A stretch of 64,000 nucleotides of DNA from an uncultured Clostridia bacterium (GCA_948466345.1 CAOKAC010000004.1:135178-199177); one strand, 5' to 3'. Shown: positions 31,585 to 63,700, counted from the first letter of the stretch. Notes: a model not told the origin generated them from the letters alone. Translations and numbers: made by a program.

Positions 31585-31668
<84 letters not shown>

Positions 31669-31775: not shown

Positions 31776-31815
31776 AAATATGGCCTGTCTAAGAGAGACT
31801 GTAACAATTTCATTT

Positions 31816-31911: not shown

Positions 31912-31987
31912 AAACGGCTTAGTCAGAATGGGCATATTTGCGCCTTCTTTCCCTGCCGCGTGAACGTCGGGGTAAAGGAGGTTTTTT

Positions 31988-46764: not shown

Positions 46765-46791
46765 GTGATTTTTTCAGAAAAGAGGGCGCAT

Positions 46792-48114
46792 ATGGCTGGC
46801 AAAAAAGATGCCTGGGAAAGGGATGAGCTGATCCGTACGGGGAGCCGCCGAAAGAAGGCGACTCCAAGGCGGACCAGCAAAAGACACGCACCGGATGATC
46901 CGACGAAACGAAAAATGAGACGTCCACCACATGTGGCTATAAAGTTGGATGAGCGACAGCCTGCTGTTAACGGTTATTATATCGCTATTGCAGATCGGTA
47001 CAGGTGGGCACGCCTGCTGTCTGTAATTCTTTTAGTGGCCTTTTTGCTGATAATGCTCCTTTTTTATCGGGAAAATATCACTTATGGAAATCTGATGTAT
47101 TTGATTCGGGATCTGGATGCCGGTGTGGTGTCCGCAGTAGGAAGATATGCTGATATCAGCTATGAGCGGCAGTATGCCCCGTCCTTTGCTCTGTTTCGTG
47201 ATCGTATCGCTGTGGCGGGAGCGGCAGGATTCCGTTTGTACAACGCTTCCGGTTCTAAAGAATTGGACTATGAAAGCGTTTATGGAGATCCACGGTTGAC
47301 GGTAGGAAAAAAATATGCTTTGCTTTATGACGCAGATGGAAAGTCTTATTCTATATATACTACGATTGCCCGCGTGCTTAGTGGTCAGGCCGAGGCAGTG
47401 ATTGAAGACGCGGCTGTTGCGGACGATGGTACACATGCTTTGCTTACCAGTTCGGATGAGTCAAAATACTTGATTACCGTTTATAGCCCGGATTTTAAAC
47501 CTCGTGTAAAATACTATAAGGATAAGTATGTGGTCGATATGGCGCTGGACCCGCAAGGCGATCACATGGCGGTTGTTTCTGCGGGCGCCGCCGGAGCGGG
47601 AGCATATTGTGAAATTATGTTCTGTAAAGTTGGCAGTGAAGAGACTGCTTCTGTGAGGTTGGAAGGCACCATGCCGCTGGCGGTTCGATATATGGATAAT
47701 GGCAGACTGGTGGTCGTGTGCGACAATAAAATTTTGTTTTATGATGGGGAAAAACAGTGCGGGCGATATGATTTAACTGGCGCTATGCCTGCTGCATTTG
47801 ATGCGAATGGAGATTTTTTTGCACTGGCTGTGTCGAAAAACGCGGTTGGGTCGGAAAATGAAATAATTCTATTTGACACAGACGGGAATATCATATATAA
47901 TAATATAATCAATGAAAAAATTCGAACAGTCGCCGCGGATGGAGACCGGGCCGTATATGTTCTTTGTGAGGACAAGGCTGTTCAGTATCTGCTGTCCGGT
48001 GAAGAGCCTAGAGAAGAGCGTCTACGCGGCGAAGCATTGGAGTTGCTGCCCGCCAGAGGGGGAGCCGTGATTTGCGAAAGCAGTGGAACATATTCTCTCT
48101 TTTTTGGTGAATGA
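46792..48114 (+). CDS. Membrane-anchored protein of unknown function (very basic cytoplasmic tail, one TM, repeat-like extracytoplasmic domain)
   Basis: I prefer ATG 46792, with AGAGGG upstream. The N-terminal 45 aa are rich in R/K/P (RRKKATPRRTSKRHAPDDPTKRKMRRPP). A single TM (LLSVILLVAFLLIMLLF) is followed by about 350 aa with recurring hydrophobic-D-G patterns suggesting beta blades. Confidence 0.6.
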   Translation: MAGKKDAWERDELIRTGSRRKKATPRRTSKRHAPDDPTKRKMRRPPHVAIKLDERQPAVNGYYIAIADRYRWARLLSVILLVAFLLIMLLFYRENITYGNLMYLIRDLDAGVVSAVGRYADISYERQYAPSFALFRDRIAVAGAAGFRLYNASGSKELDYESVYGDPRLTVGKKYALLYDADGKSYSIYTTIARVLSGQAEAVIEDAAVADDGTHALLTSSDESKYLITVYSPDFKPRVKYYKDKYVVDMALDPQGDHMAVVSAGAAGAGAYCEIMFCKVGSEETASVRLEGTMPLAVRYMDNGRLVVVCDNKILFYDGEKQCGRYDLTGAMPAAFDANGDFFALAVSKNAVGSENEIILFDTDGNIIYNNIINEKIRTVAADGDRAVYVLCEDKAVQYLLSGEEPREERLRGEALELLPARGGAVICESSGTYSLFFGE

Positions 48115-48963: not shown

Positions 48964-49554
48964 ATGAAGGCAAAGTATATTCCGAACATTTTGTCGATTA
49001 TGCGGCTCTTTATGTCTTTTGCATTTGCGGCCATCTTTATTTGGGGATATCCGGAATATGTAATGCTGGCGGCTATTATATTTATTCTGTCTGGCGTAAC
49101 AGACGTAGTTGACGGAATCCTTGCCAGAAAATTTGGCTGGGTTACGGATGCGGGAAAAATTTTGGATCCCTTAGCCGATAAGCTGATGCAGTGTACGGCT
49201 TTGCTCTGCCTGATGTTTCGTGGAATTGTTCCTTGGTGGATCCTGATTTTGATTGTGATTAAAGAAATGCTAATGGGCTGCGGCGCTATTGTTCTCTTTA
49301 AGAAAAGCCGTGAGATTGGTGTGTCAAAGTATTTTGGTAAAGCATATACAGTGATGTTTTATGCTGTAGTCATGCTATTTTTGCTGTTCCAGGATTGGCT
49401 GGGAGTAAATATGTGGGCAACATATGCGCTCTGTGTCTTTACAGCAGTGATTGCATTTGGCGTGCTTGTCTTGTATTATATCAGTTATTTAAAGAACAAA
49501 ATCAAGAAGCAGAGAAAGGCGACGACGGATGGTAATGTGTGCAAGATGCCATAA
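48964..49554 (+). CDS. pgsA: CDP-alcohol phosphatidyltransferase (phosphatidylglycerophosphate synthase-like)
   Basis: 196 aa. DGILARKFGWVTDAGKILDPLADK matches D-G-x2-A-R-x8-G-x3-D-x3-D. Confidence 0.85.
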   Translation: MKAKYIPNILSIMRLFMSFAFAAIFIWGYPEYVMLAAIIFILSGVTDVVDGILARKFGWVTDAGKILDPLADKLMQCTALLCLMFRGIVPWWILILIVIKEMLMGCGAIVLFKKSREIGVSKYFGKAYTVMFYAVVMLFLLFQDWLGVNMWATYALCVFTAVIAFGVLVLYYISYLKNKIKKQRKATTDGNVCKMP

Positions 49555-51880
49555 ACGGATGGCAGTCGTGTTCATTACAAGAATGGATGACGGCGAGTCA
49601 AAACAGGAAGGCATTTGTATAAAGTGTGCAAAAGAATTGGGCATCAAACCGGTAAACGATATCATATCAAAAATGGGACTTAGCGACGAGGATGTAGACC
49701 GTATGTCTGAGGAAATGCAGGATATTATGGACGGCATTGCAAACGGTGAAGACCCTTTAGGAATCGGTGGTGGAGAAGGCCTTGTGCAAGCCGGGGAGGA
49801 TGAGTCGCGCGCTCCGGCTGTGGATTTTGGAAAGCTGATGCGTGAGGGACTTGCTGCTGCCTCCGGTCTTCCCCAGGAACATAAGCCTGCAAAGGCAAAG
49901 GAAAAAGGCCGCGGGAGCGAAAAGGGAGAAGTTCGCAAAAAAAAGGAACGCAAATTTCTTACAACCTATTGCCAGAATATTACAGAAAAAGCCTCTATGG
50001 GCGGACTGGACCGGGTTGTTGGCAGAGAGCGGGAACTGGATCGCGTGATTCAGATATTGTGCCGGAGACAGAAAAATAATCCTTGTTTGATTGGAGAACC
50101 CGGTGTAGGAAAGACAGCAATTGCGGAGGCACTTGCCCAAAAGATCATTGCGGGCGATGTACCGTATAAGCTGCGGGGGAAAGAACTGTTTTTAATGGAT
50201 CTTACCGCTTTGGTAGCAGGAACCCAATTCCGAGGGCAGTTTGAATCCAGAGTACTGGGCCTGCTGAACGAAGTGAAGGCTGCGGGAAACATTATACTTG
50301 TAATTGATGAGGTTCATAATATTGTAGGTACTGGAGATGCGGAAGGTTCCATGAATGCCGCTAATATTATGAAACCCGCGCTGTCTCGTGGAGAAATTCA
50401 AGTTGTAGGCGCTACAACAATGACGGAATACCGGAAATATATCGAAAAGGATTCTGCCTTGGAACGGCGCTTCCAGCCTGTTACGGTAGAGGAACCTGGC
50501 CTTGCGGATAGTGAAAATGTTTTGCGGGGCATCAAGCATTATTATGAAGCATATCATGGGATCCGCATTCCTGAAAGCGTGCTGCGCGCTGCGGTGGTCA
50601 TGAGCGAACGGTATATTACAGACCGATATTTGCCCGATAAAGCCATTGATCTTATTGATGAAGCGGCTGCCCATATTTCTTTGTCAAACCCTGCTATTAA
50701 CGAGCGATATGAATTGGGAGACCGGCTCGTGGCTATTGAAAAAGAACAGACAGAACTGGAATCCGCTGCTGAGGCCGGAGAGGACGGAGATGAGGATACG
50801 TACCGTCGTTTGGCAGATATAAAAGTGGAGCAGCTGCGCATTCAAAATCGGATTGAAGAATTAAAAGCAGTGTGCGATGCGGTAGAGATGAAGGAATCTG
50901 ATTTGGCAGACGTAATCGAGATTTGGACAGGGATTCCTGCGTCCTCTATTACAGAAGACGAATATGCACGCTTGGAGGGACTTGGTGAGCGCCTGCGAGA
51001 ACGAATCGTAGGGCAGGATGAAGCGGTAAATGCGGTAGTACGCGCCGTCCGGCGTTCCAGAACCGGGGTGTCTCCCAAGAGAAAGCCGGTGTCCTTTATT
51101 TTTGCCGGTCCTACCGGAGTGGGCAAAACAGAGCTGGTAAAAGTTTTAGCTGCGGATTTGTTTTCATCGCCAGAAACACTGATCCGACTGGATATGAGTG
51201 AATTTATGGATAAATTTTCCGTTTCCAGAATTGTTGGAGCCCCTCCAGGATATGTAGGATATGACGATGGCGGACAGCTAACGGAAAAAATTCGCCGGCG
51301 ACCTTATTCTGTGGTGCTTTTTGATGAAATTGAAAAGGCGCATCCTGATGTGATGAATATCCTTTTGCAAATTTTGGATGATGGGCGCATCACCGATGCA
51401 CATGGCAAAACGGTCAGTTTTGAAAATACTGTAATTGTAATGACTACTAACGCCGGAAGCAGTGGCGGTATGGCGCTGGCGGGCTTTACGGATCAGGGAG
51501 ACATGCGTACGAAGGAAAAGACCCAAAAGGCTCTTTCAGATTTTCTGCGTCCGGAATTTCTCAACCGAGTGGATGAAGTGATTACGTTCCGTTCTTTGGA
51601 TAAAGAAGATTTCAAACGAATTGCATCTATTATGTTGGAGGACCTTAAAAAGGCCTTGGCGGAAAAATATATCCGATTCCACTATACGGATGCTGCAGCA
51701 GCATACATTGCAAAGCAGTCTTTTTCTGTGAAATATGGTGCGCGGAACATGCGTCGGTATATTCAGACAGCTGTGGAAGATCAGGCGGCGGAAAAGATAG
51801 TAGCTCTGCGTGGACAGCTTTCAGGGATCTGCTTGGATGTGGGAATGGACCAGGACAGTCTTTCTGTAACAGCTATTTAA
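49529..51880 (+). CDS. ClpC/ClpB-type double-AAA+ chaperone with an N-terminal 4-Cys zinc ribbon in place of the Clp_N domain
   Basis: 783 aa. NBD1 has GEPGVGKTA and NBD2 has GPTGVGKTE. A short coiled-coil M-region is present. LAGF sits at the position of the ClpC VGF ClpP-docking loop. The N-terminus reads MVMCARCHKR...GICIKCAKELG. Confidence 0.85.
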   Translation: MVMCARCHKRMAVVFITRMDDGESKQEGICIKCAKELGIKPVNDIISKMGLSDEDVDRMSEEMQDIMDGIANGEDPLGIGGGEGLVQAGEDESRAPAVDFGKLMREGLAAASGLPQEHKPAKAKEKGRGSEKGEVRKKKERKFLTTYCQNITEKASMGGLDRVVGRERELDRVIQILCRRQKNNPCLIGEPGVGKTAIAEALAQKIIAGDVPYKLRGKELFLMDLTALVAGTQFRGQFESRVLGLLNEVKAAGNIILVIDEVHNIVGTGDAEGSMNAANIMKPALSRGEIQVVGATTMTEYRKYIEKDSALERRFQPVTVEEPGLADSENVLRGIKHYYEAYHGIRIPESVLRAAVVMSERYITDRYLPDKAIDLIDEAAAHISLSNPAINERYELGDRLVAIEKEQTELESAAEAGEDGDEDTYRRLADIKVEQLRIQNRIEELKAVCDAVEMKESDLADVIEIWTGIPASSITEDEYARLEGLGERLRERIVGQDEAVNAVVRAVRRSRTGVSPKRKPVSFIFAGPTGVGKTELVKVLAADLFSSPETLIRLDMSEFMDKFSVSRIVGAPPGYVGYDDGGQLTEKIRRRPYSVVLFDEIEKAHPDVMNILLQILDDGRITDAHGKTVSFENTVIVMTTNAGSSGGMALAGFTDQGDMRTKEKTQKALSDFLRPEFLNRVDEVITFRSLDKEDFKRIASIMLEDLKKALAEKYIRFHYTDAAAAYIAKQSFSVKYGARNMRRYIQTAVEDQAAEKIVALRGQLSGICLDVGMDQDSLSVTAI

Positions 51881-51910
51881 TTTGTACGGAAGATAAAATT
51901 TGGAGCATAT

Positions 51911-54700
51911 ATGAAACAGGATAAAAATTGGCATCACCTGACGGTCGATACGCTTTCTGCGTTTTTTAAAACGGACAGCGTGACGGGATTGACAGAGCGG
52001 GAAGCCGCAAGGCGGCTGCGCAGGGGGACCAATAAAATATGGGCTGTGCGGAGCATATCGCTGCAGCGATATGCCGGCAGGTCCTTGGCTGACTTTTCCA
52101 CAGTGCTTCTTGTCATTACGGCGCTTCTTGCGGCGGTTTTCGGTAATGCGGCCGAAACCGCCGCTGTTTGCATAATGCTTGCGGCAGCTCGGTGTGGGCG
52201 CATTCTTACATATGTATGTGCCCAGCGGGTTTTTGAGAAAAATGCTGCTTCTGCGCTCCCGCGGGCAAGAGTTGTCCGTGCTGGTACGGTTAGAACCATT
52301 CCTGCGGACCGTGTGGTTCCCGGGGATGTAATTGTTTTAGACACAGGGGATACGGTACCTTGTGACGTACGCTTGACTGCGGCAGATAATGTATTGGTAT
52401 CCGAGGGGATGGTTACAGGCCACGAGGGAATCGTTTCAAAAAATGCCCAGGACATCCCGGGAGAAGAAAATACGCCTATCTCTATGCGCACCAATATGTT
52501 GTATGCATCTTCGGCGGTAATCCGAGGATTTTGTATGGGAATGGCAGTAGCTACGGGGGAACATACGCTGATTTACGCTAGGGAAGGGCAAATTGAACTG
52601 TCGGGTGGAGAGGATTTGCCAATTTTTGGCAAATTGTCCGATTTGGGACGTCAGTGCAGTTTGGGGTTGATTCTGATTGCACTGGTGACTTGCATCGTTG
52701 GCACGGTAATTGGGAATTTGGATCTCTTTACCGTTTTTTTGCCTTCCATTGCTATGGCCGCTGCTTGCCTCAATGAATACATAAGCGCCGCAGGCGCAGC
52801 TGCGTGGGCGGCTTCTCTGCATCGAAAGCAAAAGGGCGGGCAGGTATTTCATAATGCCGCATGTGCTGAACGAGCAGCCGAAATACAGGTGTTGTATCTG
52901 CGTTCTTCAGCTGCTTTAAAAAGTGAAAAGATATCTTTCCATGCCTATTATGAAGGAAATACTTATGAAACGGTTTCGAAGGAAACGGAACATTTACCCC
53001 GCCGGCTTTTATATTTAGCGCATTGCGCGACGGGCGTCGCTCCTGATGGTGCAGTCACTGCCGGACAGGCTGCGCAGTTTCAGGAAGATGAAGGGGTGCT
53101 GGCGTATTCCGTTGTTCGCTCTTTGTGGCAGGAGCAGAAAAATGAAAAGATACCAAAGCAGGAGCGTTATATGGTTGTACAGCACGTTCCGGCTGCACAA
53201 GAAGATGCCGGCGGCATGGACTGCGCGCTGCTGGCTAGAGAGGGTTCCTTTTATTTTACATGTCTTGGCCGAGTAGAGGATGTATTATCTCAGTGCACTA
53301 CACAGCGAGTTGGAGAGGAGTCTGTACCCCTTGTACCGCAAGAACGGGATAAAATTTTGTCCCTTGCCACTTCTCTTACAATGCAGGGAATCGTGGTAGC
53401 TGCAGTAGGCTTTCGCAGTTCCCATTACAACAGCCTGCGCCGGATTTCCGTGCTCCAGTCAAGCTTATGCTTTGAAGGATTTGTTGCTGTGTCGCAGCGG
53501 CCGCAGGCGGATACTTTGGTTGCACTGCAGAACTTTCGAAAAGAAGGCGGACGTATTGTTCTGTTCTCTGACGGATCGAAGGCGGACCATTATTTTACGC
53601 AGGCACAAGGAATTTTTGAGCAGAATGATATTTATATGACCCAGCAGGAATGTGTGGCTGCACATACGCTTCCCTTAGAACCTGGAACATTGGTTATGGT
53701 TAGTACACCCAGCGGCATGGATGGGATTCGGGAAAGAGTGCGGTTTATGGGCATGAGTAAGGAGAGTGGACTTTGCCGAGGCTATCTTGGCTGGGGCATG
53801 GAAGATATATGGATCATGCGGCAGGCCGATGTCGCATTTGCTGCTCCCGTCCCAGGCAGATATGGAGCAGATATTCCCCAGGCGCTTCGGGTTGCCGCTA
53901 ATGGAATGGTGAGCTTGGGAGAAGGCGGATTTTTGCCAGTGATGGGTATGATCATGCGCTGCCGCGCCGCTGTACGCAACATATACAACATGTTTTCCTA
54001 TTTGGTTGTATCTCATATGACCCGGGTGGTGCTGCTTCTGATTTGCGCTGCCGCCGGACTGCCGCTTCTTTCCGCGTCCCAAATGGTATTTTGGGGTATG
54101 TTGCTGGACTTTTCTGTGACCGCCGCCGCAGCGCTGACCCCTTCAGGAAATTATGTGCCTCCTATTAATAAGGATGATACGGGAGCGAAAAAACATGAAA
54201 ACGGGAAAGAAAATTTGAAATTCAACCTGCAAAAAGTTAACTTTTTGCACACAGAGGCGGGCAGTACGCTGGTGCTGGCACTTTACGGCACTCTGCTGGC
54301 GGTATTGACGGTGCTTTCTCCTTATTTGGGCCGCTCCTTAATTGATATGCTAGGGCCGTCCTGCAATCTAAGTGCGGGCATACAGCAAAGTTGCATGTTT
54401 TTATCGTGCATATGTGCAATGCCTTTTATTGCCTCGGAATTTTGCGGAGGACATGGACTTTTCAACAAAAAATCCCAGTATGGCCGTTTTTTCTGGATGC
54501 CTTATGCTGTCGCAGCTTTGGGAATTGTATGGGTCGTTGCTGTAGGCGGACTTGTCAAGACAGAGACGGCAACATTGGATACGATGGCGCCAGGCTGGCT
54601 GTTGTTCATTTTTGCATTGCTGCCAGTGCTTGTGTCTGTGGCGGTAATGTCCATTACGCGGGCATTGACTACCCGACAGAAGCCCCGCAAATGTAAATAA
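51911..54700 (+). CDS. P-type (P2-like) cation ATPase homologue with degenerate catalytic motifs (probable pseudoenzyme)
   Basis: 929 aa. It has a Cation_ATPase_N-like start (LTEREAARRLRRGTNKI), PGDVIVLDTGDTVPCDVRL, and N- and C-terminal TM bundles. There is no DKTGT anywhere. RSSAALK (52901-52921) occupies the DKTGTLT position and GWGMED (53789-53806) occupies the GDGxND position. Confidence 0.75.
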   Translation: MKQDKNWHHLTVDTLSAFFKTDSVTGLTEREAARRLRRGTNKIWAVRSISLQRYAGRSLADFSTVLLVITALLAAVFGNAAETAAVCIMLAAARCGRILTYVCAQRVFEKNAASALPRARVVRAGTVRTIPADRVVPGDVIVLDTGDTVPCDVRLTAADNVLVSEGMVTGHEGIVSKNAQDIPGEENTPISMRTNMLYASSAVIRGFCMGMAVATGEHTLIYAREGQIELSGGEDLPIFGKLSDLGRQCSLGLILIALVTCIVGTVIGNLDLFTVFLPSIAMAAACLNEYISAAGAAAWAASLHRKQKGGQVFHNAACAERAAEIQVLYLRSSAALKSEKISFHAYYEGNTYETVSKETEHLPRRLLYLAHCATGVAPDGAVTAGQAAQFQEDEGVLAYSVVRSLWQEQKNEKIPKQERYMVVQHVPAAQEDAGGMDCALLAREGSFYFTCLGRVEDVLSQCTTQRVGEESVPLVPQERDKILSLATSLTMQGIVVAAVGFRSSHYNSLRRISVLQSSLCFEGFVAVSQRPQADTLVALQNFRKEGGRIVLFSDGSKADHYFTQAQGIFEQNDIYMTQQECVAAHTLPLEPGTLVMVSTPSGMDGIRERVRFMGMSKESGLCRGYLGWGMEDIWIMRQADVAFAAPVPGRYGADIPQALRVAANGMVSLGEGGFLPVMGMIMRCRAAVRNIYNMFSYLVVSHMTRVVLLLICAAAGLPLLSASQMVFWGMLLDFSVTAAAALTPSGNYVPPINKDDTGAKKHENGKENLKFNLQKVNFLHTEAGSTLVLALYGTLLAVLTVLSPYLGRSLIDMLGPSCNLSAGIQQSCMFLSCICAMPFIASEFCGGHGLFNKKSQYGRFFWMPYAVAALGIVWVVAVGGLVKTETATLDTMAPGWLLFIFALLPVLVSVAVMSITRALTTRQKPRKCK

Positions 54701-54809: not shown

Positions 54810-55643
54810 ATGGAAGAACAAAATACATGTACCCATGATTGTTCCAGTTGCGGCGCTGATTGCGCTTCTCGGGGCAATACAGAAATACAAAAGGAACCCT
54901 TGAATCCTGCCTCATCCGTGAAGCACGTAATTGGAGTTGTTTCTGGAAAGGGCGGTGTTGGCAAGTCTTTAGTAACTTCCATGCTGGCTACGGAGATGCG
55001 TCGACGTTCTTGGGGTGTTGCTGTGTTGGATGCAGATATTACCGGTCCATCTGTGCCAAAAGCGTTTGGCGTGTCCGGAGGTGTGGAGGTTAGTGGTGAA
55101 ACAATGCTTCCCGCCTATACAAAAACAGGCATTCAATTGATGAGCGTCAATTTGCTGCTGGAAGACGCTCGAAGCCCGGTCGTTTGGCGTGGGCCCGTTA
55201 TTGCAGGCGCTGTAAAGCAGTTTTGGACGGATGTAGTTTGGACGGATGTAGATTATATGTTTGTGGATATGCCTCCTGGAACAGGAGACGTGCCGCTTAC
55301 TGTATTTCAGTCTCTCCCCCTGGACGGAATCATTATTGTGACGACGCCTCAGGAGCTGGTTTCCATGATTGTGGAAAAAGCGGTGAATATGGCAAAGCTT
55401 ATGAATATCCCCATTTTGGGCATGGTGGAAAACATGTCTTATGCGGTATGTCCGGACTGTGGCAAGGAAATCCCTTTGTTTGGCGAGAGTCGGGCAGAGG
55501 CAGTTGCAGGTGAATACGGCATTCCTCTTCTTGCAAGGATTCCTTTGGATACAAAGCTGACAGGACTGGTAGACAAAGGTGTGATTGAACTGATGGAAAA
55601 CGAATACATCGTACCTGCGGCGGATGCCGTGGAAGGTCTGTAA
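54810..55643 (+). CDS. Mrp/NBP35/ApbC-family Fe-S cluster carrier ATPase
   Basis: I prefer ATG 54810 (MEEQNTCTHDCSSCGADC). The deviant Walker A is SGKGGVGKS and the CPDCG CxxC motif is present. Confidence 0.88.
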   Translation: MEEQNTCTHDCSSCGADCASRGNTEIQKEPLNPASSVKHVIGVVSGKGGVGKSLVTSMLATEMRRRSWGVAVLDADITGPSVPKAFGVSGGVEVSGETMLPAYTKTGIQLMSVNLLLEDARSPVVWRGPVIAGAVKQFWTDVVWTDVDYMFVDMPPGTGDVPLTVFQSLPLDGIIIVTTPQELVSMIVEKAVNMAKLMNIPILGMVENMSYAVCPDCGKEIPLFGESRAEAVAGEYGIPLLARIPLDTKLTGLVDKGVIELMENEYIVPAADAVEGL

Positions 55644-55667: not shown

Positions 55668-56912
55668 ATGGAAAACAAAAACATGACAAAAGAGCAAAAA
55701 CGGCAGGAAAGCGTTTCGATCGCTTTCCTGCCGAAACCTAAGAAACAGTTGTCGGAAAAGGACAAACAGCTGAATCTGACAGGTATGCACAAAAAGAGAG
55801 ACGCTGTGTCGGACCGCAAAAAGCGCAGGCGCTTTTACATTGGCATCGGTATTCCTGTGGGGCTGATTCTGCTTCTTACTGTATGCTATGTGATATTTGT
55901 TTACTCATCCAATCCTTTTATTGCTCATTGGAGAGGGATCTGGATTGAAACAGCGATGACCACCGGCCGACATCACTGGCTGGCAGAAAGCTTTTTTCCC
56001 CAAGATATCATAGATGAGGTTATGTCAAATTTGGCCACGGACGAGGATGTTCTTGGCGGGGGAGACGGCTTATCTACAGGAGATCCAGTGCAGACGGATG
56101 AGCCGGAAGATGAGCCGCCGGTGCAGGCTGATATATTGGGTCAGAAAAACCTGACGGTAGGCGGCAAGGATTATGCCGGGAATACGGTGCTCATTAATGA
56201 CATTGAACAGGGACTGGTGGTTTCTGAAATCATAGGCTCCGGATTTAAAGGGAAAATTATGCTGGTAGACGATCCTTCCAGAGTGTATTTAGGGTCTACG
56301 GCATATAAAAATCAAACAGGCATGCGTATCCTGGATATGATGGAGCAATACGGCGCTATTGCCGGAATTAACGCAAGCGGCTTTCGGGATCCAGGCGGTG
56401 AAGGAAACGGTGGAGTTGTTGTAGGTATTAGCTGTTCAAGGGGTCAATACTGGGGCGAATTTGTAAATTACTATGGCAGTATTGTTTTGACTACGGACAA
56501 TAAGCTGGTTGTTGGCAATATCTCTCTTTGGAGTACATATACAAATATACGAGATGGAATCCAATTCAGCCCGGTGCTGATCGCAGATGGCGTCAAACAG
56601 GTATCCGGCTCTGCGGGATACGGACTGCAGCCCCGGACCGCAATCGGACAGCGCGAAGACGGTGTGATTGTCATGCTGATCATTGATGGGCGTGATGTTT
56701 CCCATTCAATTGGATGTACGGTTGGAGATATGGCGGACATTCTCATGTCCTATAATGTGATTAATGCATCCAGCTGTGATGGCGGCGCTTCCAGTGTACT
56801 TGCCTATAAGGGAGAAGTGATTACAAAAAATTGTTCGGCAAATCCTTCTCTGGGGCGCATTTTGCCAAATGCGTTTTTGGTAGCACCTAAAGAAAATATA
56901 AGCGCAGAATGA
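55668..56912 (+). CDS. Phosphodiester glycosidase (DUF2233/NAGPA) family protein, membrane-anchored
   Basis: 414 aa with an N-terminal TM (FYIGIGIPVGLILLLTVCYVIFVY). The motifs PRTAIGQREDGVIVMLIIDGR and SCDGGASS are typical of this family. Confidence 0.75.
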   Translation: MENKNMTKEQKRQESVSIAFLPKPKKQLSEKDKQLNLTGMHKKRDAVSDRKKRRRFYIGIGIPVGLILLLTVCYVIFVYSSNPFIAHWRGIWIETAMTTGRHHWLAESFFPQDIIDEVMSNLATDEDVLGGGDGLSTGDPVQTDEPEDEPPVQADILGQKNLTVGGKDYAGNTVLINDIEQGLVVSEIIGSGFKGKIMLVDDPSRVYLGSTAYKNQTGMRILDMMEQYGAIAGINASGFRDPGGEGNGGVVVGISCSRGQYWGEFVNYYGSIVLTTDNKLVVGNISLWSTYTNIRDGIQFSPVLIADGVKQVSGSAGYGLQPRTAIGQREDGVIVMLIIDGRDVSHSIGCTVGDMADILMSYNVINASSCDGGASSVLAYKGEVITKNCSANPSLGRILPNAFLVAPKENISAE

Positions 56913-56940
56913 GGGACGTATACGTCTCTCATTTTATTTT
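56909..56940 (+). terminator. Terminator before the hydrogenase operon
   Basis: ATGAGGGACGT-ata-ACGTCTCTCAT (one G-T pair) followed by TTTTATTTT. Confidence 0.7.
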
Positions 56941-57097
56941 TATAGAATATTTTTTTACTGTATTAATATAATGAGGATAAAATGAGAGATAATAGCACGA
57001 AAAAAATCTATAAAATTGCTATAAACTATGGAAATCGATAATATTTTATTGTATAATACTATAGATAACATACTTGTTCAGGAGGACAGGAAAATAT

Positions 57098-57595
57098 ATG
57101 AAAAAGAAACTGACGTCAGTAGAATTTACTGACAATCCCCAACTGCATGCTCGCCTTGATGAAATTATTGAGCAGCATAAGGATGAAGATGGCGCTCTGA
57201 TGCCTATTATGCAAAAGGCGCAGGAGATTTACGGCTATCTCCCGCCGGAGGTACAAAAGCATATTGCAGTAAAAATGGGAATCCCTGTTTCTGAGGTGTA
57301 CGGTGTTGCTACATTTTATTCCCAGTTCTTACTCAATCCCAAGGGACAGTATCCTGTGAGTGTTTGCCTGGGAACTGCTTGCTATGTAAAGGGTAGCGGT
57401 CTTCTGATGGAAAAACTGGAATCTGAGCTTGGAATCAGCAACGGCGGCGTGACAGACGATGGGAAATTCAGCTTAGAGGCTACCCGTTGCATCGGTGCGT
57501 GCGGATTGGCGCCTGTACTTACGGTAGGAGAGGACGTTTACGGAAGACTTGTACCGGACGATATTACAGGAATTATTGCAAAATATCAGGGTTAA
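57098..57595 (+). CDS. hydC: NuoE-like [2Fe-2S] subunit of a bifurcating-type [FeFe] hydrogenase
   Basis: ATG 57098 has AGGAGGA upstream. The CLGTAC...CIGACGLAP thioredoxin-like 2Fe-2S motif is present. Confidence 0.88.
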   Translation: MKKKLTSVEFTDNPQLHARLDEIIEQHKDEDGALMPIMQKAQEIYGYLPPEVQKHIAVKMGIPVSEVYGVATFYSQFLLNPKGQYPVSVCLGTACYVKGSGLLMEKLESELGISNGGVTDDGKFSLEATRCIGACGLAPVLTVGEDVYGRLVPDDITGIIAKYQG

Positions 57596-57647
57596 TCAAA
57601 AACCTTCCTGCAGAAAATATCTATTATTGATATGAAATCGGAAAGGC

Positions 57648-58016
57648 ATGGACAGAAATTTGAAAATTAGAAAAATCAGAGAACTTCTGGACGCTGAACT
57701 TCTGTGTGGAGAAGACCAATTGGACAGAGAAGTATACTCTGCTTGCAGCAGCGACATGATGAGCGATGTGCTTGCTTTTGTAAAGGATCAGGCCGTGCTG
57801 CTTACAGGACTGGTCAATCCACAAGTAATGCGTACTGCGGAAATGATGGATATGCACTGCGTTGTTTTTGTGCGTGGAAAGAATCCTACACCGGAAATGG
57901 TGGAACTGGCCCAAAGCAGTGGAATCGTTGTGATGCATTCTGCGCTGCGAATGTATGAAGCATGCGGCACACTTTACAGCGCCGGCTTGAATGGAACGAA
58001 AGTGGCGGCAGAATGA
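57648..58016 (+). CDS. DRTGG-domain protein (1)
   Basis: 122 aa. SDMMSDVLAFVKDQAVLLTGLVNPQVMRTAEMMDMHCVVFVRGK fits the DRTGG-domain pattern as I recall it. Its stop overlaps the next start (ATGA). Confidence 0.65.
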   Translation: MDRNLKIRKIRELLDAELLCGEDQLDREVYSACSSDMMSDVLAFVKDQAVLLTGLVNPQVMRTAEMMDMHCVVFVRGKNPTPEMVELAQSSGIVVMHSALRMYEACGTLYSAGLNGTKVAAE

Positions 58017-58438
58017 CAGACGCAGGAATTAATTTTCATTTTGATGTAGATGGGGAAGATTTTTCTTCTGCCGGCGCTGCGTCGGTAGAGGTCAAAAAGA
58101 ATCTTCGTCAGCTTGGATTCCCGCCGGATGTAATTCGCAAGGTGGCTATTGCCATGTATGAGGGAGAGATCAATATGGTGATCCATGCAAATGGCGGCAC
58201 TGCAGATGTATTTGTGCTTCCCGATGAAATTACCATGGTACTGCGGGATCAGGGACCGGGCATTGCAGATGTTTCGCTTGCAATGCAGGAGGGCTTTTCA
58301 ACAGCTAGGGATAATATTCGTTCCCTTGGGTTTGGAGCCGGTATGGGTCTGCCAAATATGAAGAAATATACAGACGCCATGGAGATTGAGACCGAACTTG
58401 GCAAGGGCACAAAAATTGTGATGCGGGTAAAGGTGTAG
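58013..58438 (+). CDS. GHKL (HATPase_c) ATP-binding protein, RsbW/SpoIIAB-like, no DHp domain (1)
   Basis: I prefer ATG 58013 (MTDAGINFHF). The N-box-like motif is YEGEINMVIHA, G1 is RDQGPGI and G2 is GFGAGMGLPN. Confidence 0.75.
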   Translation: MTDAGINFHFDVDGEDFSSAGAASVEVKKNLRQLGFPPDVIRKVAIAMYEGEINMVIHANGGTADVFVLPDEITMVLRDQGPGIADVSLAMQEGFSTARDNIRSLGFGAGMGLPNMKKYTDAMEIETELGKGTKIVMRVKV

Positions 58439-58512
58439 CTGCCTTTTCCGGTGGATGCGGTGCGTATTTTGTTGGACGAAACCACCACAAATTTAAAGAA
58501 AGACATGGCCGT

Positions 58513-59856
58513 ATGATGGAATATAAGCATTCAGTGTCCCTTGATGTGGATAAATGCAAGGGATGTACACACTGCTTGAAGCGCTGTCCAACGGAGGCGA
58601 TCCGCATCCGAGAAGGCAAAGCAAGGATTCATTCCCAGCGGTGTATTGACTGTGGCGAGTGCATTCGTGTTTGTCCGTATAAGGCAAAGAAAGCGACCCA
58701 TGATTCCTTAGAGGCGATGGAGCAGTTTCGGTATAAGGTTGCACTTCCCGCTCCTTCCTTATATGGACAGTTTGATCATCTTTCTGATATAGACTTTGTA
58801 CTGCAGGGCCTTCTGGATATGGGCTTTGACGAAGTATATGAGGTCTCTAAGGCGGCGGAATTGGTTTCTGGTTATACCAGACAGTATTTGCGTAGAGAGG
58901 GGCTGAAAAAGCCTGTCATCAGTTCAGCCTGCCCGGTAATTGTTCGGCTAATCAGTATGCGGTTCCCATATTTATGTGAGAATGTGCTTCCGATTCTGCC
59001 ACCCATTGAAATTGCCGGCAAGCTGGCAAAAGAAAAAGCATTATCGGAGCATCCCGAGCTTGCAGCGGAGGAAATTGGTATTTGCTTTATTTCTCCTTGC
59101 CCGGCAAAAGTCAGTTATGTGAAAAATTCCTTTGCAGGGCAAAAAAGCAACATAGATTTGGTGCTTTCTATATCCGACGTATACTTTCCCCTGGTTTCTC
59201 ATATGAACAAAATCATTGTTCCAGAAGTTTCTACAGATTCCGGAATGGTGGGTGTCAGCTGGGCAGTAGCCGGCGGAGAGTCTACCGCAGTATTTAACGA
59301 CCGATATCTAGCGGCGGATGGAATAGAAAACGTCATTCGTGTGCTGGACCAAATAGAAAACGCCGATTTTCCGGAATTGGAGTTTGTGGAACTCAATGCT
59401 TGTGATGGCGGCTGCGTCGGCGGAGTAATGACTGTAGCAAACCCGTACATAGCAAAGGCGCGCATTCAATCTTTGAAGCGATATTTGCCCGTATCTCCCA
59501 ATCTGCATCCTGGAGATGGGGATATACCAGGCGAGGCAGCTATGCCGCCTGTAGAATATGCGCCGGCATCTCCTCTATCCAAAGACAGAAAAGAAGCCAT
59601 GCGCATGATGGCAGACATACAGGATATTCGAAAGGAGCTTCCCGATTTAGACTGTGGATCCTGCGGGGCCCCTACTTGTGCGGCTTTTGCTGAGGATATC
59701 GTTCGAGGAGAGGCATGTGCAGACGAGTGTGTTGTATTTATGCGGATGATTTTTCACGATTATATCGAGAAGAGAAAGGACGCCGCACAGGTTAAGGAAG
59801 CACTGCGTACACAGCCTCACAGCAAGGATATACGGCCGAAATGTGAGGATGGATAA
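58513..59856 (+). CDS. [FeFe]-hydrogenase-like Fe-S protein (H-domain homologue with variant H-cluster motifs; putative sensor)
   Basis: 447 aa. Two CxxCxxCxxxCP ferredoxin motifs are present. The H-domain motifs are SSAC140P (versus TSCCP), SPC196PAK (versus MPCxxK) and ELNAC297DGGC301VGG (versus ExMxCxxGCxxGG). The extra C-terminal Cys cluster reads CGSCGAPTC...CADEC. Confidence 0.8.
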   Translation: MMEYKHSVSLDVDKCKGCTHCLKRCPTEAIRIREGKARIHSQRCIDCGECIRVCPYKAKKATHDSLEAMEQFRYKVALPAPSLYGQFDHLSDIDFVLQGLLDMGFDEVYEVSKAAELVSGYTRQYLRREGLKKPVISSACPVIVRLISMRFPYLCENVLPILPPIEIAGKLAKEKALSEHPELAAEEIGICFISPCPAKVSYVKNSFAGQKSNIDLVLSISDVYFPLVSHMNKIIVPEVSTDSGMVGVSWAVAGGESTAVFNDRYLAADGIENVIRVLDQIENADFPELEFVELNACDGGCVGGVMTVANPYIAKARIQSLKRYLPVSPNLHPGDGDIPGEAAMPPVEYAPASPLSKDRKEAMRMMADIQDIRKELPDLDCGSCGAPTCAAFAEDIVRGEACADECVVFMRMIFHDYIEKRKDAAQVKEALRTQPHSKDIRPKCEDG

Positions 59857-60197
59857 TGATGCCTATGAAACTGAATGTATTGGCGGACAGACTTGCCCTG
59901 ACACATATTTGCGGCGAACTGGATAAGGAAGCGTCCGGCGTTTATACAGGGGATTTGCTCAGCTGGGTCATGAGCCATGTAGAGGCGGGCGATGTTTGGA
60001 TAACAATTATGTCCAATGTAAATGTGGCGGCAGTTGCCAGCCTCACGGAGGCGGCATGCGTGATTCTGGCTGAAAGTGTGCAGCCTGACGAGGAGACGAT
60101 GCAGGCGGCAAAGGAAAAGAATGTAACGATTTTTTCCGATTCCCGGTCCGCATATCAATTGTGCTGCTGCCTTGGAGCTATTTTATCTGATGGGTAA
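59856..60197 (+). CDS. DRTGG-domain protein (2)
   Basis: 113 aa, paralogous in pattern to 57648-58016 (GDLLSWVMSHVEAGDVWITIMSNVNVAAVASLTEAACVILAE). Its start overlaps the upstream stop (TAATG). Confidence 0.6.
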   Translation: MMPMKLNVLADRLALTHICGELDKEASGVYTGDLLSWVMSHVEAGDVWITIMSNVNVAAVASLTEAACVILAESVQPDEETMQAAKEKNVTIFSDSRSAYQLCCCLGAILSDG

Positions 60198-60924
60198 ATA
60201 TTATTATGACCTGCATATCCACTCCTGCCTGTCTCCATGCGGGGATACGGATATGACGCCTGCAAACATTGCTGGTATGGCGGCGGTGGCCGGACTGCAG
60301 ATTGCAGCACTCACCGATCACAATACAACAGACAATTGTCCTGCTTTTTGGCAGGCGTGTAAGGCGCAGGGGATCATTCCCGTACCTGGTGTGGAGCTGA
60401 CTACAGCAGAAGAGATTCATCTACTATGCCTATTTCGGGAGCTAGATGGAGCAATGGCTTTTGGAGAACGTATCGCAGCAGCAAGGCTTCCTGTGAAGAA
60501 TCGACCTGATATTTTTGGGCACCAGCTTGTAATGGACTGCACAGACCAGGTGCTGCGAGAGGAAGAAACGTTGCTGCTTAGCGCTACATCGCTTACTTTA
60601 GAAGAAGGAACGCGGATGTGTCGAACGCTTGGGGGGGTGTGCATGCCTGCCCACATTGATCGCGAGTCCAATGGTATAATTTCCGTGCTTGGTACTTTCC
60701 CGGCGGAGCCTGGGTATACCAGCTTTGAACTGAGCCCGACAGGGGAACGACGGGAATTGGAGACTGCGTATCCAATTCTGCAGGGTATGGGCTGTGTCAC
60801 CAGTTCGGATGCGCATTATTTGTGGGACATATCCGGAGCGGAACACAGCATGGAAATCCAGGATGAGCCGTACAGCAGTGCTTTGGTGCGGGAAAACCTT
60901 CTGGCGATTTTGGAGAATAAATAA
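60190..60924 (+). CDS. PHP-domain phosphoesterase
   Basis: I prefer ATG 60190 (MGKYYYDLHIHSCLSPCGD). DLHIHS and ALTDHN are PHP metal-binding motifs, with PAHIDR and SSDAH further on. Confidence 0.8.
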   Translation: MGKYYYDLHIHSCLSPCGDTDMTPANIAGMAAVAGLQIAALTDHNTTDNCPAFWQACKAQGIIPVPGVELTTAEEIHLLCLFRELDGAMAFGERIAAARLPVKNRPDIFGHQLVMDCTDQVLREEETLLLSATSLTLEEGTRMCRTLGGVCMPAHIDRESNGIISVLGTFPAEPGYTSFELSPTGERRELETAYPILQGMGCVTSSDAHYLWDISGAEHSMEIQDEPYSSALVRENLLAILENK

Positions 60925-60926
60925 AA

Positions 60927-61475
60927 ATGAAGGATTTATCTCTCTACATATTGGATATTGCTATGAATTCTGTCCGGGCTGGTGCAAAGCATATTGCAAT
61001 TCGGCTGGAGGAACAGAACGCTGTATTGACCCTAACCATTCAGGATGACGGGTGCGGTATGACGCCGGAGCAGGTGAAGCGCTTGTTTGACCCTTTTTAT
61101 ACTACTAGAAAGACCCGAAGCGTTGGATTGGGCGTTCCTTTTTTGCGAATGCTGGCACAGCAGACTGGAGGCGGCGTTTCCATTTCTTCCAAAAGCGAGA
61201 CGGAATACGCAGATCATGGCACATTGGTAACGGCTGTATTTCACACGGACCATATAGATTTTATCCCTTTGGGGAATCTTACAGAAACGATTGTAACTTT
61301 GATTCAGGGAAGTCCAAATGTGGATTTTATTTACTGCCACAGTATGTCATGCGGCAGTGTTGCAATGGATACAGCCCAGATGCGCAGCATACTGGGGGAG
61401 GGCATTCCTTTGGACAATTATGAAGTGCTGAGCTTCATAAAATCGTATTTACAAGAACAGTATCAACAATTATAA
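60927..61475 (+). CDS. GHKL (HATPase_c) ATP-binding protein without DHp domain (2)
   Basis: 182 aa. The N-box-like motif is LDIAMNSVRAG, G1 is DDGCGM and G2-like is GLGVPF. Confidence 0.75.
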   Translation: MKDLSLYILDIAMNSVRAGAKHIAIRLEEQNAVLTLTIQDDGCGMTPEQVKRLFDPFYTTRKTRSVGLGVPFLRMLAQQTGGGVSISSKSETEYADHGTLVTAVFHTDHIDFIPLGNLTETIVTLIQGSPNVDFIYCHSMSCGSVAMDTAQMRSILGEGIPLDNYEVLSFIKSYLQEQYQQL

Positions 61476-61509
61476 TTTATATATTGAAATATCGGAAAGG
61501 AAGTATCAT

Positions 61510-61881
61510 ATGAAATCGTTATCAGAACTTGCAGCGATCAGAGAGCAAATGAAGGACAAGGTCGCTATTCGGACAGGATCCGGAGACATTCGTGTCGTAG
61601 TAGGCATGGCAACCTGCGGGATATCGGCAGGCGCCAGACCTGTGCTCAATACCTTTGTTGAGGAAGTAGCTGCGGCAAATCTCACTGAAAAGGTGATGGT
61701 AACCCAGACGGGGTGTATTGGCATTTGCCAGTATGAACCTGTAGTTGAAATTTTTGAGGATGGAAAAGAAAAGACTACATATGTTAAAATGACACCTGAG
61801 AAAGTCAAACGGGTTGTTGAAGAGCATCTGAAGGGCGGGAAGCCCGTTTCAGAATATTTAATTGGCAATACAAAGCTTTAA
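61510..61881 (+). CDS. Thioredoxin-like [2Fe-2S] ferredoxin-domain protein
   Basis: 123 aa with the GMATCGISAGA...TGCIGICQYEP Cys pattern. It sits immediately upstream of the NuoF-like gene, as in other hyd operons. Confidence 0.8.
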   Translation: MKSLSELAAIREQMKDKVAIRTGSGDIRVVVGMATCGISAGARPVLNTFVEEVAAANLTEKVMVTQTGCIGICQYEPVVEIFEDGKEKTTYVKMTPEKVKRVVEEHLKGGKPVSEYLIGNTKL

Positions 61882-61900
61882 TCTGGAGGGACAAAAAAGA

Positions 61901-63700
61901 ATGGTACGTTCACATGTTTTAATTTGCGGAGGCACAGGCTGTACATCCTCCGGCAGTACTGCGTTAAGGGAGGCACTTGCAAAGGAACTGGAAGCCAATA
62001 ACCTTAGCGAGGAAATAAAAATCGTCCAGACCGGATGCTTTGGTTTATGCGCGCTAGGACCGATTATGATTGTATATCCGGAGGGAACATTTTACTCCAG
62101 AGTTGCGACAGACGACATTCCGGAAATCGTGTCTGAGCATCTGCTCAAAGGGCGTATCGTAGATCGCCTGGTTTACAATAAAACCGCTGATGTAGAAGCA
62201 GATTCTCACGAATTGCATGCTTCTTTGTCCGATACAGATTTCTATAAAAAACAGAAGCGGGTTGCGCTGCGTAACTGTGGTGTAATCAACCCAGAAAAAA
62301 TTGATGAATACATAGCAATGGACGGCTATTTTGCCCTTGCAAAAGTCCTTACGGAAATGAGTAGGGAAGATGTTGTGCAAACACTGCTGGATTCCGGCCT
62401 GCGCGGCCGTGGCGGCGCAGGATTTCCTACCGGCTTGAAATGGAAGTTTGCGATGGGCAGCGAGGGTAAGAAGTATGTTTGCTGTAACGCAGACGAAGGC
62501 GACCCGGGCGCATTTATGGACCGTTCTGTTTTGGAAGGCGACCCGCATGCCGTACTGGAGGCTATGGCTATTGCAGGCTATGCTATCGGTGCAGATCAGG
62601 GATATATTTATGTGCGTGCAGAGTATCCTATTGCTGTAAATCGCTTGGAAATCGCTCTGCAGCAGGCAAGAGAATACGGTCTGCTGGGAGAAAATATTCT
62701 GGACACCGGATTCAATTTTGATATTCAGCTTCGTCTTGGCGCAGGCGCTTTTGTGTGCGGAGAAGAGACAGCGCTGATGACCTCTATAGAAGGCAAGCGG
62801 GGTGAACCTCGTCCGCGTCCTCCGTTCCCGGCTGTGAAGGGCCTTTTTGAGCGTCCCACAATTTTGAACAACGTAGAGACTTATGCGAACATTCCCCAAA
62901 TTATTTTGAATGGTCCTGCATGGTTTGCCTCTATGGGTACAGAAAAGTCTAAAGGCACAAAAGTATTTGCTCTAGGCGGAAAAATCACCAATACGGGTCT
63001 TGTTGAAGTACCTATGGGCACAACGCTGCGGGAAATCGTAGAAGAAATCGGTGGCGGCATCCCTAACGGCAAAAAGTTCAAAGCAGCGCAGACGGGAGGT
63101 CCATCCGGTGGATGTATTCCCGCATCTCTTATTGATACGCCTATCGATTATGACAACCTGCTGGAAATCGGATCAATGATGGGATCCGGCGGTCTCATTG
63201 TTATGGATGAAGACACCTGTATGGTAGACCTTGCTAAATTCTTCCTGGAGTTTACGGTAGACGAGTCTTGTGGTAAATGTGCTCCCTGCCGAATCGGCAC
63301 TGTTCGTATGTTGGAAATTCTAAACAGAATTTCTGAGGGAAATGGTGAGATGGAAGATTTGGATAAGCTGGAGGAACTGGCAAATTATATCAAGTCTGCC
63401 TCCCTTTGCGGTTTGGGACAGACGGCGCCTAATCCAGTGCTGTCTACGCTCCGGTATTTCCGGGATGAATATGAAGCCCATATTAAAGAAAAAAGATGTC
63501 CTGCCGGCGTGTGCAAAAAACTTCTTTCTTACAACATCGATTCTGACAAGTGTAAAGGCTGTACGCTTTGCGCCCGGGTATGTCCTGCAAATGCAATTTC
63601 CGGTACAGTCAAGAATCCGCATGTCATCGATCCGGAAAAATGTCTGAAGTGCGGCGCTTGCATTGAAAAATGTAAATTTGGCGCAATTTACAAGAAGTAA
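61901..63700 (+). CDS. hydB: NuoF-like FMN/NAD(H)-binding subunit of [FeFe] hydrogenase
   Basis: I prefer ATG 61901, with GGAGGG upstream. It has an N-terminal 2Fe-2S domain (CGGTGC...GCFGLC). GLRGRGGAGFPTGLKW is the FMN site, ESCGKCAPCR is the N3-type cluster, and two CxxCxxCxxxCP motifs lie at the C-terminus. Confidence 0.93.
   Translation: MVRSHVLICGGTGCTSSGSTALREALAKELEANNLSEEIKIVQTGCFGLCALGPIMIVYPEGTFYSRVATDDIPEIVSEHLLKGRIVDRLVYNKTADVEADSHELHASLSDTDFYKKQKRVALRNCGVINPEKIDEYIAMDGYFALAKVLTEMSREDVVQTLLDSGLRGRGGAGFPTGLKWKFAMGSEGKKYVCCNADEGDPGAFMDRSVLEGDPHAVLEAMAIAGYAIGADQGYIYVRAEYPIAVNRLEIALQQAREYGLLGENILDTGFNFDIQLRLGAGAFVCGEETALMTSIEGKRGEPRPRPPFPAVKGLFERPTILNNVETYANIPQIILNGPAWFASMGTEKSKGTKVFALGGKITNTGLVEVPMGTTLREIVEEIGGGIPNGKKFKAAQTGGPSGGCIPASLIDTPIDYDNLLEIGSMMGSGGLIVMDEDTCMVDLAKFFLEFTVDESCGKCAPCRIGTVRMLEILNRISEGNGEMEDLDKLEELANYIKSASLCGLGQTAPNPVLSTLRYFRDEYEAHIKEKRCPAGVCKKLLSYNIDSDKCKGCTLCARVCPANAISGTVKNPHVIDPEKCLKCGACIEKCKFGAIYKK

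Follow-up and report, generated by a model that had tools for sequence, protein, structure and literature searches.

A P-type ATPase homologue at positions 51911 to 54700

The window analyzed here is a 64,000-nucleotide stretch of DNA from an uncultured Clostridia bacterium (GCA_948466345.1, CAOKAC010000004.1:135178-199177), and the gene in question, on its plus strand, encodes a protein that has the form of a P-type ATPase and has lost the catalytic motifs. We refer to this protein as the pseudo-pump. An earlier note, made from the sequence alone, had described it as a P2-type homologue with degenerate motifs, and this was borne out by Pfam, by the fold predicted with AlphaFold2 (AF2) and by HMMER alignment to the Listeria Ca2+-ATPase LMCA1. 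The gene and its parts are listed below, with M1 to M10 denoting the membrane helices.

51902-51905, plus strand: Shine-Dalgarno sequence GGAG, 5 nt before the ATG, read from the sequence
51911-54700, plus strand: pseudo-P-type ATPase gene, 929 aa, ATG start; P2A-derived, catalytic motifs all lost
51929-52129, plus strand: Cation_ATPase_N-like N-terminus (residues 7-73; PF00690, E 1.6e-7, above cutoff)
52259-52825, plus strand: A-domain and M3-M4 (E1-E2_ATPase by Pfam, residues 117-305), the most constrained region
52775-52777, plus strand: Glu289 of M4, equivalent to SERCA Glu309, kept in 128 of 152 family members
52892-52921, plus strand: former phosphorylation site (residues 328-337), LYLRSSAALK for ICTDKTGTLT in the HMMER alignment to LMCA1
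52946-53470, plus strand: N-domain-like fold (residues ~346-520), modelled confidently for ~440-520, ATP-binding residues lost
53420-53458, plus strand: S-(H/P)-Y-N-x-L-R-R-x-S-V-L-Q motif at the N/P hinge, family-specific and conserved
53789-53818, plus strand: former Mg-site motif, GWGMEDIWIM for GDGVNDAPAL in HMMER and MAFFT alignments
53999-54025, plus strand: M5 segment YLVVSHMTR, with His702 for the Asn768 equivalent and Arg705 for the Glu771 equivalent
54080-54109, plus strand: M6 segment QMVFWGMLLD, with Gly729 for Asn796 and Asp733 as the Asp800 equivalent
54146-54265, plus strand: insert after M6 (residues 746-785), subclade-specific, pLDDT 35-42, nearly neutral
54266-54697, plus strand: M7-M10 helix bundle (AF2 helices 783-814, 822-845, 859-881 and 896-927)

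Pfam assigned E1-E2_ATPase (PF00122) to residues 117-305 with an E value of 1e-23, above the cutoff. Of the domains for which the earlier note had proposed an hmmscan search, PF00122 and Cation_ATPase_N were found, and neither Hydrolase (PF00702) nor Cation_ATPase_C (PF00689) was detected in the 929-aa protein. The N-terminus carries NWH and GL(S/T)xxEAxxR motifs that are conserved in the alignment. The NCBIfam P-type models all scored far below their cutoffs: TIGR01494 reached 33 bits against a cutoff of 62.3, the Ca-ATPase equivalogs at most 105 bits against cutoffs of 507-798, and TIGR01647 (P3A) 66 bits against 615, so that the protein is not a P3A member.

An AF2 model built from a 29-sequence alignment (pLDDT 80.3, pTM 0.77) displayed the whole P-type architecture, with A, N and P domains and helices M1 to M10. 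When the model was compared with the PDB using Foldseek, it matched P2 and P3 pumps exclusively, with E values down to 7e-37. The best matches were E1 states of SPCA1, SERCA and LMCA1 (TM-score 0.72-0.80), with the E1-Ca structure of LMCA1, 9evc, at 0.80. An open frame of 2.8 kb with 10 predicted transmembrane (TM) helices and a confident full-length P-type fold is far beyond what chance would produce. The insert after M6 is missing from most relatives in the alignment.

Loss of the catalytic motifs

A phmmer search of PDB sequences returned LMCA1 (9euq/6zhf) as the top match, with an E value of 7e-35 over residues 25-733. In the resulting alignment the position of the phosphorylated Asp is taken by Arg331 (nt 52901). 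The catalytic TGES of the A-domain reads TGHE (52415-52426), and in the N-domain the ATP-binding KGAPE reads LGRVE, with Leu at the position of the Lys. In the P-domain and hinge, DPPR has become QRPQ and (I)TGD has become (L)FSD. The motif assignments made in the earlier note for TGES, KGAPE, DPPR, TGD and GDGxND were thus reproduced independently, and GWGMEDIWIM, which it had placed from nt 53789, was recovered exactly. It had also picked the right site for LYLRSSAALK, although the coordinates it gave (52901-52921) cover RSSAALK, the full motif spanning 52892-52921.

We determined the conservation of these positions across the family in a 152-member MAFFT alignment, from which all family counts given here are taken. 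At the nucleophile position there were 49 Pro, 35 Arg, 15 Ser and 14 Cys, with Ala and Thr among the others and, in a few members, an Asp. A phosphorylatable Asp in a DKTGT-like context would have spoken against the earlier note; neither HMMER nor MAFFT gave one, and the position was P, R, S, C, A or T. The TGES Glu is replaced by N, V, K, S, D or H across the family, the first Asp of GDGVND by S, R, Y or W or kept as D, and the KGAPE Lys by R, C, S, M or L. The last Asp of GDGVND is Asp or Glu in 132 of the 152 members.

Misalignment that masks a DKTGT-like Asp was ruled out, since HMMER and two MAFFT alignments agree and a regular-expression search found no DKTG anywhere in the window protein. 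A conserved substitute active site was likewise ruled out: the former catalytic positions differ among subgroups, and therefore no alternative chemistry has been fixed. Because the residues for ATP binding, aspartyl-phosphate formation and dephosphorylation are all gone and their positions vary freely, the protein, judged by its residues, cannot be expected to run a Post-Albers cycle.

A rebuilt ion site

The core of the A-domain (G138, D139, G146, D152, R154, K177 and G206) is invariant throughout the family and is the same in real pumps. The invariants that are specific to the family are confined to the old ion site. Position 705 in M5 is basic in all 152 members (140 Arg and 12 Lys), position 729 is Gly in 150 of them, and Asp733 is present in every one. 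Of the P2A site II ligands, Glu289 and Asp733 are kept, Asn796 is replaced by Gly729, and the helix-unwinding proline of PEGL is lost, with Ser or Asn in its place; the Thr799 equivalent is Leu in the window protein. In the alignment, then, the former Ca2+ site is seen to have been rebuilt around a basic residue in M5 and the Asp of M6, with the M4 Glu mostly kept. The clade also has replacements of its own in common, namely (V/L)LRSxxxLKSGK, SHYNSLRRxSVLQSxLCFEGF, GxGVEDMW, IPQxLR and YLIVSHVAR. Canonical pumps have no equivalent of SxYNxLRRxSVLQ and carry a variable or gapped loop at that place.

An M6 Asp with a built-in basic residue in M5 is the pattern of the P3A ion site, and the pseudo-pump has it, as a functional analogy and not as membership based on homology. 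In AHA2, an H+-ATPase of the plant plasma membrane, Arg655 of TM5 is the equivalent of SERCA Glu771 and Asp684 overlaps Asp800; for the Asp that carries the proton, Arg655 is a built-in counter-ion, a part that Lys693 plays for Asp714 in ZntA (PMC5387105). The pair in the pseudo-pump lies at the same positions, the Glu771 and Asp800 equivalents, and is invariant. Site I of LMCA1 is filled by Arg795 (PMC11468904), a residue that comes from M8, whereas the Arg of the pseudo-pump comes from M5. AHA2, ZntA and LMCA1 are active pumps with full catalytic motifs, unlike the pseudo-pump, which is moreover not P3A. From these positions the pseudo-pump is best described as a putatively H+-ATPase-like, self-neutralising Asp/Arg core on a dead engine.

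Selection and extent of the family

To judge from ratios of nonsynonymous to synonymous substitution (dN/dS, Nei-Gojobori), the gene is under purifying selection, with values of 0.113, 0.090 and 0.097 against three orthologues. The flanking genes gave 0.02 and 0.015, so that the constraint on the pseudo-pump is the weaker. By region, omega was ~0.01 in the A-domain, 0.07-0.13 in the N- and P-like domains, 0.08-0.11 in M5-M6 and 0.04-0.14 in the TM domain, and rose to 0.5-0.8 in the insert after M6. In all complete orthologous loci the gene was intact and of full length; the frameshifts or stops that the earlier note had named as a sign of decay were seen in none of them, and its description of a maintained pseudoenzyme holds up at dN/dS values of 0.09-0.11. 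The family combines clear homology and loss of the catalytic residues with purifying selection and long-term retention, which is the pattern of a pseudoenzyme.

We searched 5.8 billion proteins with a word-indexed method and obtained a sharply separated clade of 880-930 aa proteins with 35-100% identity and scores of 255-2087 bits, none of which carried PF00702 or PF00689; canonical Ca-ATPases scored at most 145 bits in the same search. A profile of this clade run against 1.84 billion representatives (50% identity) gave scores that fell continuously from 1415 to ~270 bits. About 125 of the top 150 representatives lacked DKTGT, TGES, GDGxND and DPPR, and canonical pumps with all four motifs began at ~290 bits. 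The family divides into ~23 subgroups with less than 30% identity between them, and two further searches seeded by subgroups added hundreds more 90% clusters, none with PF00702.

The sources were metagenome-assembled genomes (MAGs) or metagenomes throughout, the named ones being MAGs of uncultured gut Clostridia, and no cultured organism or UniRef entry appeared among the family members retrieved. When GTDB species genomes were scanned with patterns specific to the clade, 27 species turned up, all of them represented by MAGs. Many of these belong to 'Candidatus Avispirillum', a taxon that NCBI assigns to Clostridia incertae sedis, and the carriers came from bird, rabbit, ruminant and human guts. 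In NCBI and JGI the proteins are labelled 'cation-transporting P-type ATPase' (Ruminococcaceae, Clostridia, Lachnospiraceae, Eubacteriales) or 'Ca2+-transporting ATPase'.

Some unusual proteins were also seen. One protein (P0256, 878 aa) groups with DKTGT pumps by identity and has no DKTGT, TGES or GDGxND; it may represent an independent, more recent loss of catalysis. Others (P0193, P0203, P0211 and more, those sampled all from subgroup 18) extend beyond M10 with cytosolic C-terminal tails of 100-350 aa. In these 1040-1290-aa members no Pfam domain was found in the tails, which are acidic, rich in Pro, Glu and Ser, and of low complexity. An apparent ParB fusion (P0034) was rejected as a chimeric assembly or gene call.

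Linkage to a Clp-like AAA+ gene

The pseudo-pump lies in a co-directional run in the window that reads ecfA-ecfA'-ecfT-truA-DUF5711-CvpA-PgsA-[ClpC-like AAA+]-[pseudo-pump]-Mrp/NUBPL-NAGPA and is followed by a hydrogenase-associated cluster. Its two immediate neighbours are these.

49529-51880, plus strand: two-ring Clp/Hsp100 AAA+ unfoldase (783 aa) by Pfam, the invariant upstream neighbour
54810-55643, plus strand: Mrp/NUBPL-type Fe-S carrier ATPase, the downstream neighbour

In place of Clp_N, the AAA+ protein begins with a conserved zinc ribbon, MCxRCxKRxAVVFI...EGxCxKCAKELGIKPV (CxxC...CxxC). It has a variable linker that is acidic or basic and, by alignment, has kept the ClpP-docking (A/L/I)GF loop. 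It scored below all NCBIfam equivalog cutoffs. The start of its gene overlaps the end of pgsA by 26 nt. Between its stop codon (TAA, 51878-51880) and the ATG of the pseudo-pump lie 30 nt, which contain the GGAG. A terminator scan of the window predicted none between the two genes, and the first strong plus-strand terminator follows NAGPA at 56906-56935. A perfect sigma-70 consensus (TTGACA, 17 nt, TATAAT) occurs at 47873-47901 on the plus strand, inside the 3' part of the DUF5711 gene and ~280 nt before CvpA. It is a match to the consensus only, and a possible internal promoter from which a CvpA-PgsA-AAA+-pump-Mrp-NAGPA unit would be transcribed up to the terminator at 56906-56935.

Among the loci that bear a pump and have upstream sequence, every one had the AAA+ gene directly upstream on the same strand. 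This held in nine separately sampled subgroups and down to ~24% identity to the window protein. The gaps between the two genes were 4-102 nt, mostly 20-34, with gaps of 4, 6 and 8 nt in loci L040, L041 and L005. In more than 45 loci (~24-100% identity) the pseudo-pump was found at no other position. The AAA+ protein is the better conserved of the two, at 75-97% identity against 35-92% for the pump within the clade and ~60% against ~25% between subgroups.

We also asked how often the AAA+ gene is followed by a pump. A reverse scan of metagenome contigs with the zinc-ribbon motif recovered 540 relatives, of which we retained the best 80. The subtype seems to be uncharacterised, and it is widespread in gut metagenomes. 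About 32 loci had a complete AAA+ gene and enough downstream sequence, and 10 of them carried a pump, in all 10 without DKTGT. The remaining loci kept truA-DUF5711-CvpA-AAA+ and had unrelated genes 3' of it, with Mrp directly 3' in one. In a neighbour-joining tree of the AAA+ proteins the pump-bearing loci all fell within one of two major clades, and two small groups without a pump were nested in that same clade. This distribution is what one would expect if a P2A paralogue had been inserted once, long ago, directly 3' of the Clp gene and had then been inherited vertically and lost at least twice. The dependence is one-sided, in that the pump never occurs without the AAA+ gene, which for its part is often found without a pump. 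Obligate two-way coupling was ruled out, since most metagenome loci of the zinc-ribbon AAA+ type have no pump. Mrp/NUBPL was ruled out as a conserved partner, being adjacent in the window's clade only and not in L009-L011 or L040.

Several further features of these loci were recorded. The DUF5711 gene (46765-48114, plus strand in the window) encodes a protein of ~400-450 aa with no NCBIfam match. It has the same place in loci L001-L041, and in this lineage it always lies between truA and CvpA/AAA+, pump present or not. In L009, from the genome of a distant relative, a canonical P-type ATPase of 880 aa with PF00702 and PF00689 (9945-12587, minus strand) lies directly downstream of the pseudo-pump and convergent to it, so that a real and a dead paralogue coexist there. 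At 57074-63700 (plus strand) the window carries genes for a NuoE-like 2Fe-2S protein, a histidine-kinase-like ATPase, an Fe-hydrogenase-like protein plus a PAS-less FeS protein, a PHP protein and a NuoF-like protein. Clusters of this kind are typical of electron-bifurcating or sensory [FeFe]-hydrogenase loci, and in many relatives (L001, L039-L041) this one is syntenic 3' of Mrp.

Possible roles of the pseudo-pump

We regard it as highly probable, from its sequence and that of its relatives, that the protein is a maintained, catalytically dead pseudo-pump, a non-catalytic descendant of a P2A (LMCA1/SERCA-like) Ca2+-ATPase. As to what it does, we propose tentatively that it may be a co-expressed membrane partner of the Clp unfoldase, as a tether, adaptor or regulator. 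We favor this role as the most likely one because of the 4-102 nt adjacency maintained since the ancient gain, the lack of a predicted terminator between the genes in the window, and the constraint on the cytosolic head, the A-domain above all, which exceeds that on the rest of the protein; taken for itself, it is a suggestion that may well prove wrong. The explanation as a whole, dead pump together with Clp-partner mechanism, we would put a little short of an even call, as a compromise between its two parts. The earlier note had offered 'partner of another ATPase' among the possible functions; a conserved ATPase neighbour does exist, and it is the Clp/Hsp100 AAA+ protein and not another P-type pump.

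In the mechanism that we have in mind, the basic residue of M5 would pair with the Asp of M6 and perhaps with the Glu of M4. Such pairing would cancel the buried charges with no transported ion present and thereby lock or bias the membrane domain, and the protein would be a membrane module of structural or regulatory function instead of a pump. The cytosolic head, especially the A-domain and the SxYNxLRRxSVLQ hinge motif, would then offer an interaction surface, and, more speculatively, the partner of that surface would be the co-expressed zinc-ribbon ClpC/ClpE-like unfoldase. Clp activity close to the membrane is plausible biology: in Clostridium thermocellum, for instance, ClpXP is reported to degrade anti-sigma fragments that have been released from the membrane (PMC12203970).

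A bolder form of this proposal, and a doubtful one, is that the co-transcribed zinc-ribbon unfoldase has the pseudo-pump as its receptor or adaptor at the membrane, so that a disused ion-pump chassis would carry a Clp machine docked to the membrane. Docking could take place at the A-domain or SxYNxLRRxSVLQ, and the Arg-Asp-Glu site could make it sensitive to pH or cations. In its extreme version, the AAA+ motor would drive the conformational switch of the old pump in trans and so replace phosphorylation.

A number of observations weigh against a partnership with Clp or against the locked membrane domain. A block of ~10-20 kb (ecfA-ecfA-ecfT-truA-DUF5711-CvpA-AAA+) is syntenic in the lineage, so that the two genes may be neighbours because their order was inherited. 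Many loci of the AAA+ subtype have no pump (~10 of the ~32 evaluable metagenome loci have one), and the pump has apparently been lost from two or more sublineages, which means that the unfoldase can do without it. Compared with the AAA+ gene, the pump also evolves 3-5 times faster, a difference not usually seen in a tight obligate partner. Finally, the Arg-Asp contact is one that we infer from homologous positions, and H+ or a cation might still be bound by the Glu and Asp that have been retained.

A serious alternative to the Clp-partner role, though one we think improbable, is that the function has nothing to do with Clp and that the gene order is frozen synteny. The protein would then be a structural membrane factor, or one of lipid or envelope homeostasis acting with CvpA, PgsA and DUF5711, which are membrane or envelope proteins. 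That the upstream block is conserved with or without the pump, and that the AAA+ gene is common without it, would be expected on such an account. It explains less well why the pump sits at no other location in more than 45 loci spanning ~24-100% identity, why gaps as short as 4-8 nt suggest translational coupling, and why PgsA and CvpA are sometimes missing between DUF5711 and the AAA+ gene.

Roughly as unlikely, in our judgement, is an ATP-independent function in the membrane itself, as an ion or proton channel, leak or uniporter or as a cation or pH sensor, with the head domains only a regulatory cap. The residues that are invariant and specific to the family do coincide exactly with the old site of ion binding, where the M4 Glu, M6 Asp and M5 Arg would be used, an Asp/Arg pair handles protons in P3A pumps, and the TM domain is under purifying selection (omega 0.04-0.14). 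A permanent Arg-Asp salt bridge is, however, more likely to plug the site than to conduct, the proline that unwinds the M4 helix and Asn796 are both lost, and the strongest constraint falls on the cytosolic A-domain and not on the pore region.

We give still less weight to a regulatory pseudo-subunit that forms a heterodimer with a genuine Ca2+ or Mg2+ P-type pump, in the manner of pseudokinases. MgtA, which is among the closest solved structures, was deposited as a dimer, and L009 offers the convergent canonical ATPase (PF00702) described above; that pump, though, adjoins in only one of more than 40 loci, and no pairing is conserved.

An active ATPase with unconventional catalytic residues is very improbable. 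In its favor are the intact fold, the Asp or Glu at the last GDGVND position in 132 of 152 members and the few members with an Asp at the 331-equivalent position. HAD motifs I, II and III/IV, the TGES Glu and the N-domain Lys are nevertheless all lost, PF00702 does not match, and with a nucleophile position that differs among subgroups (P, R, S, C, A) there is no conserved chemistry. A decaying pseudogene that merely looks intact in the source genome can be dismissed almost with certainty: the gene does evolve faster than its neighbours (dN/dS 0.10 against 0.02), but a dN/dS of ~0.1, an intact frame in every complete locus and retention to ~24% identity with invariant TM residues lead us to reject it.

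Precedents and implications

With pumps of the LMCA1/YloB and SERCA/SPCA types the pseudo-pump shares its domain order, 10 TM helices, the A-domain core, the M4 Glu and the M6 Asp. It differs from LMCA1, SERCA and SPCA in having no DKTGT, TGES, DPPR, TGD, GDGVND or KGAPE, in the changes of Glu771 to Arg and Asn796 to Gly, and in the loss of the PEGL Pro. Among published cases, the degenerate P-type module that comes closest is that of P4GC, the guanylate cyclases of alveolates and stramenopiles. In some lineages, P4GC-beta and Cryptosporidium included, the DKTGT Asp and the Glu of the A-domain (LDGET) are altered, and the authors suggested that ATPase activity may be modified or lost with the P4-ATPase-like module retained (PMC13466520). 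That module is eukaryotic, derived from P4 flippases and fused to a cyclase, and its loss is partial and lineage-dependent, whereas the pseudo-pump is bacterial, P2A-derived and stand-alone, with the motifs lost in all members.

The AAA+ neighbour shares two AAA+ rings and the ClpP-docking (A/L/I)GF loop with ClpE and ClpC of Firmicutes, and differs from them in falling below all the equivalog cutoffs of NCBIfam. ClpE also has an N-terminal zinc ribbon in place of Clp_N, as does the neighbour. We know of no adaptor for this neighbour. Our searches of openly accessible papers found no Clp unfoldase with a P-type-ATPase-like membrane partner, and none is known to us. They likewise found no bacterial P-type family without DKTGT, subscription-only papers lying outside the search, in agreement with the statement in the earlier note that it knew of no described family of this kind in Firmicutes.

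Few membrane machines are understood as well as the P-type ATPases, whose defining feature is their aspartyl-phosphate chemistry. A family such as this would mean that the P-type scaffold, like the ABC and kinase folds, can be put to a second use without catalysis. It would also be a natural experiment on the role of the A-domain and TM core without phosphorylation. The invariant Arg/Asp pair is a handle that can be tested directly. The linkage to Clp suggests a possible new membrane-associated proteostasis module in abundant uncultured gut Clostridia. What is likely to surprise a specialist is the completeness and age of the loss, the invariant Arg/Asp core and the Clp linkage. In practical terms, the 'cation pump' labels in the databases are probably wrong and would inflate the ion-transport capacity inferred in metagenome-based metabolic models.

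Other features of the window

Away from the pseudo-pump, the window contains a THF riboswitch (RF01831, 86 bits) at 31815-31912 on the plus strand, upstream of an open reading frame at 31988-32542. A tRNA gene lies nearby at 31588-31668 on the minus strand, and both fall within a low-GC (0.30) stretch at 30.1-32.0 kb that is poor in open reading frames.

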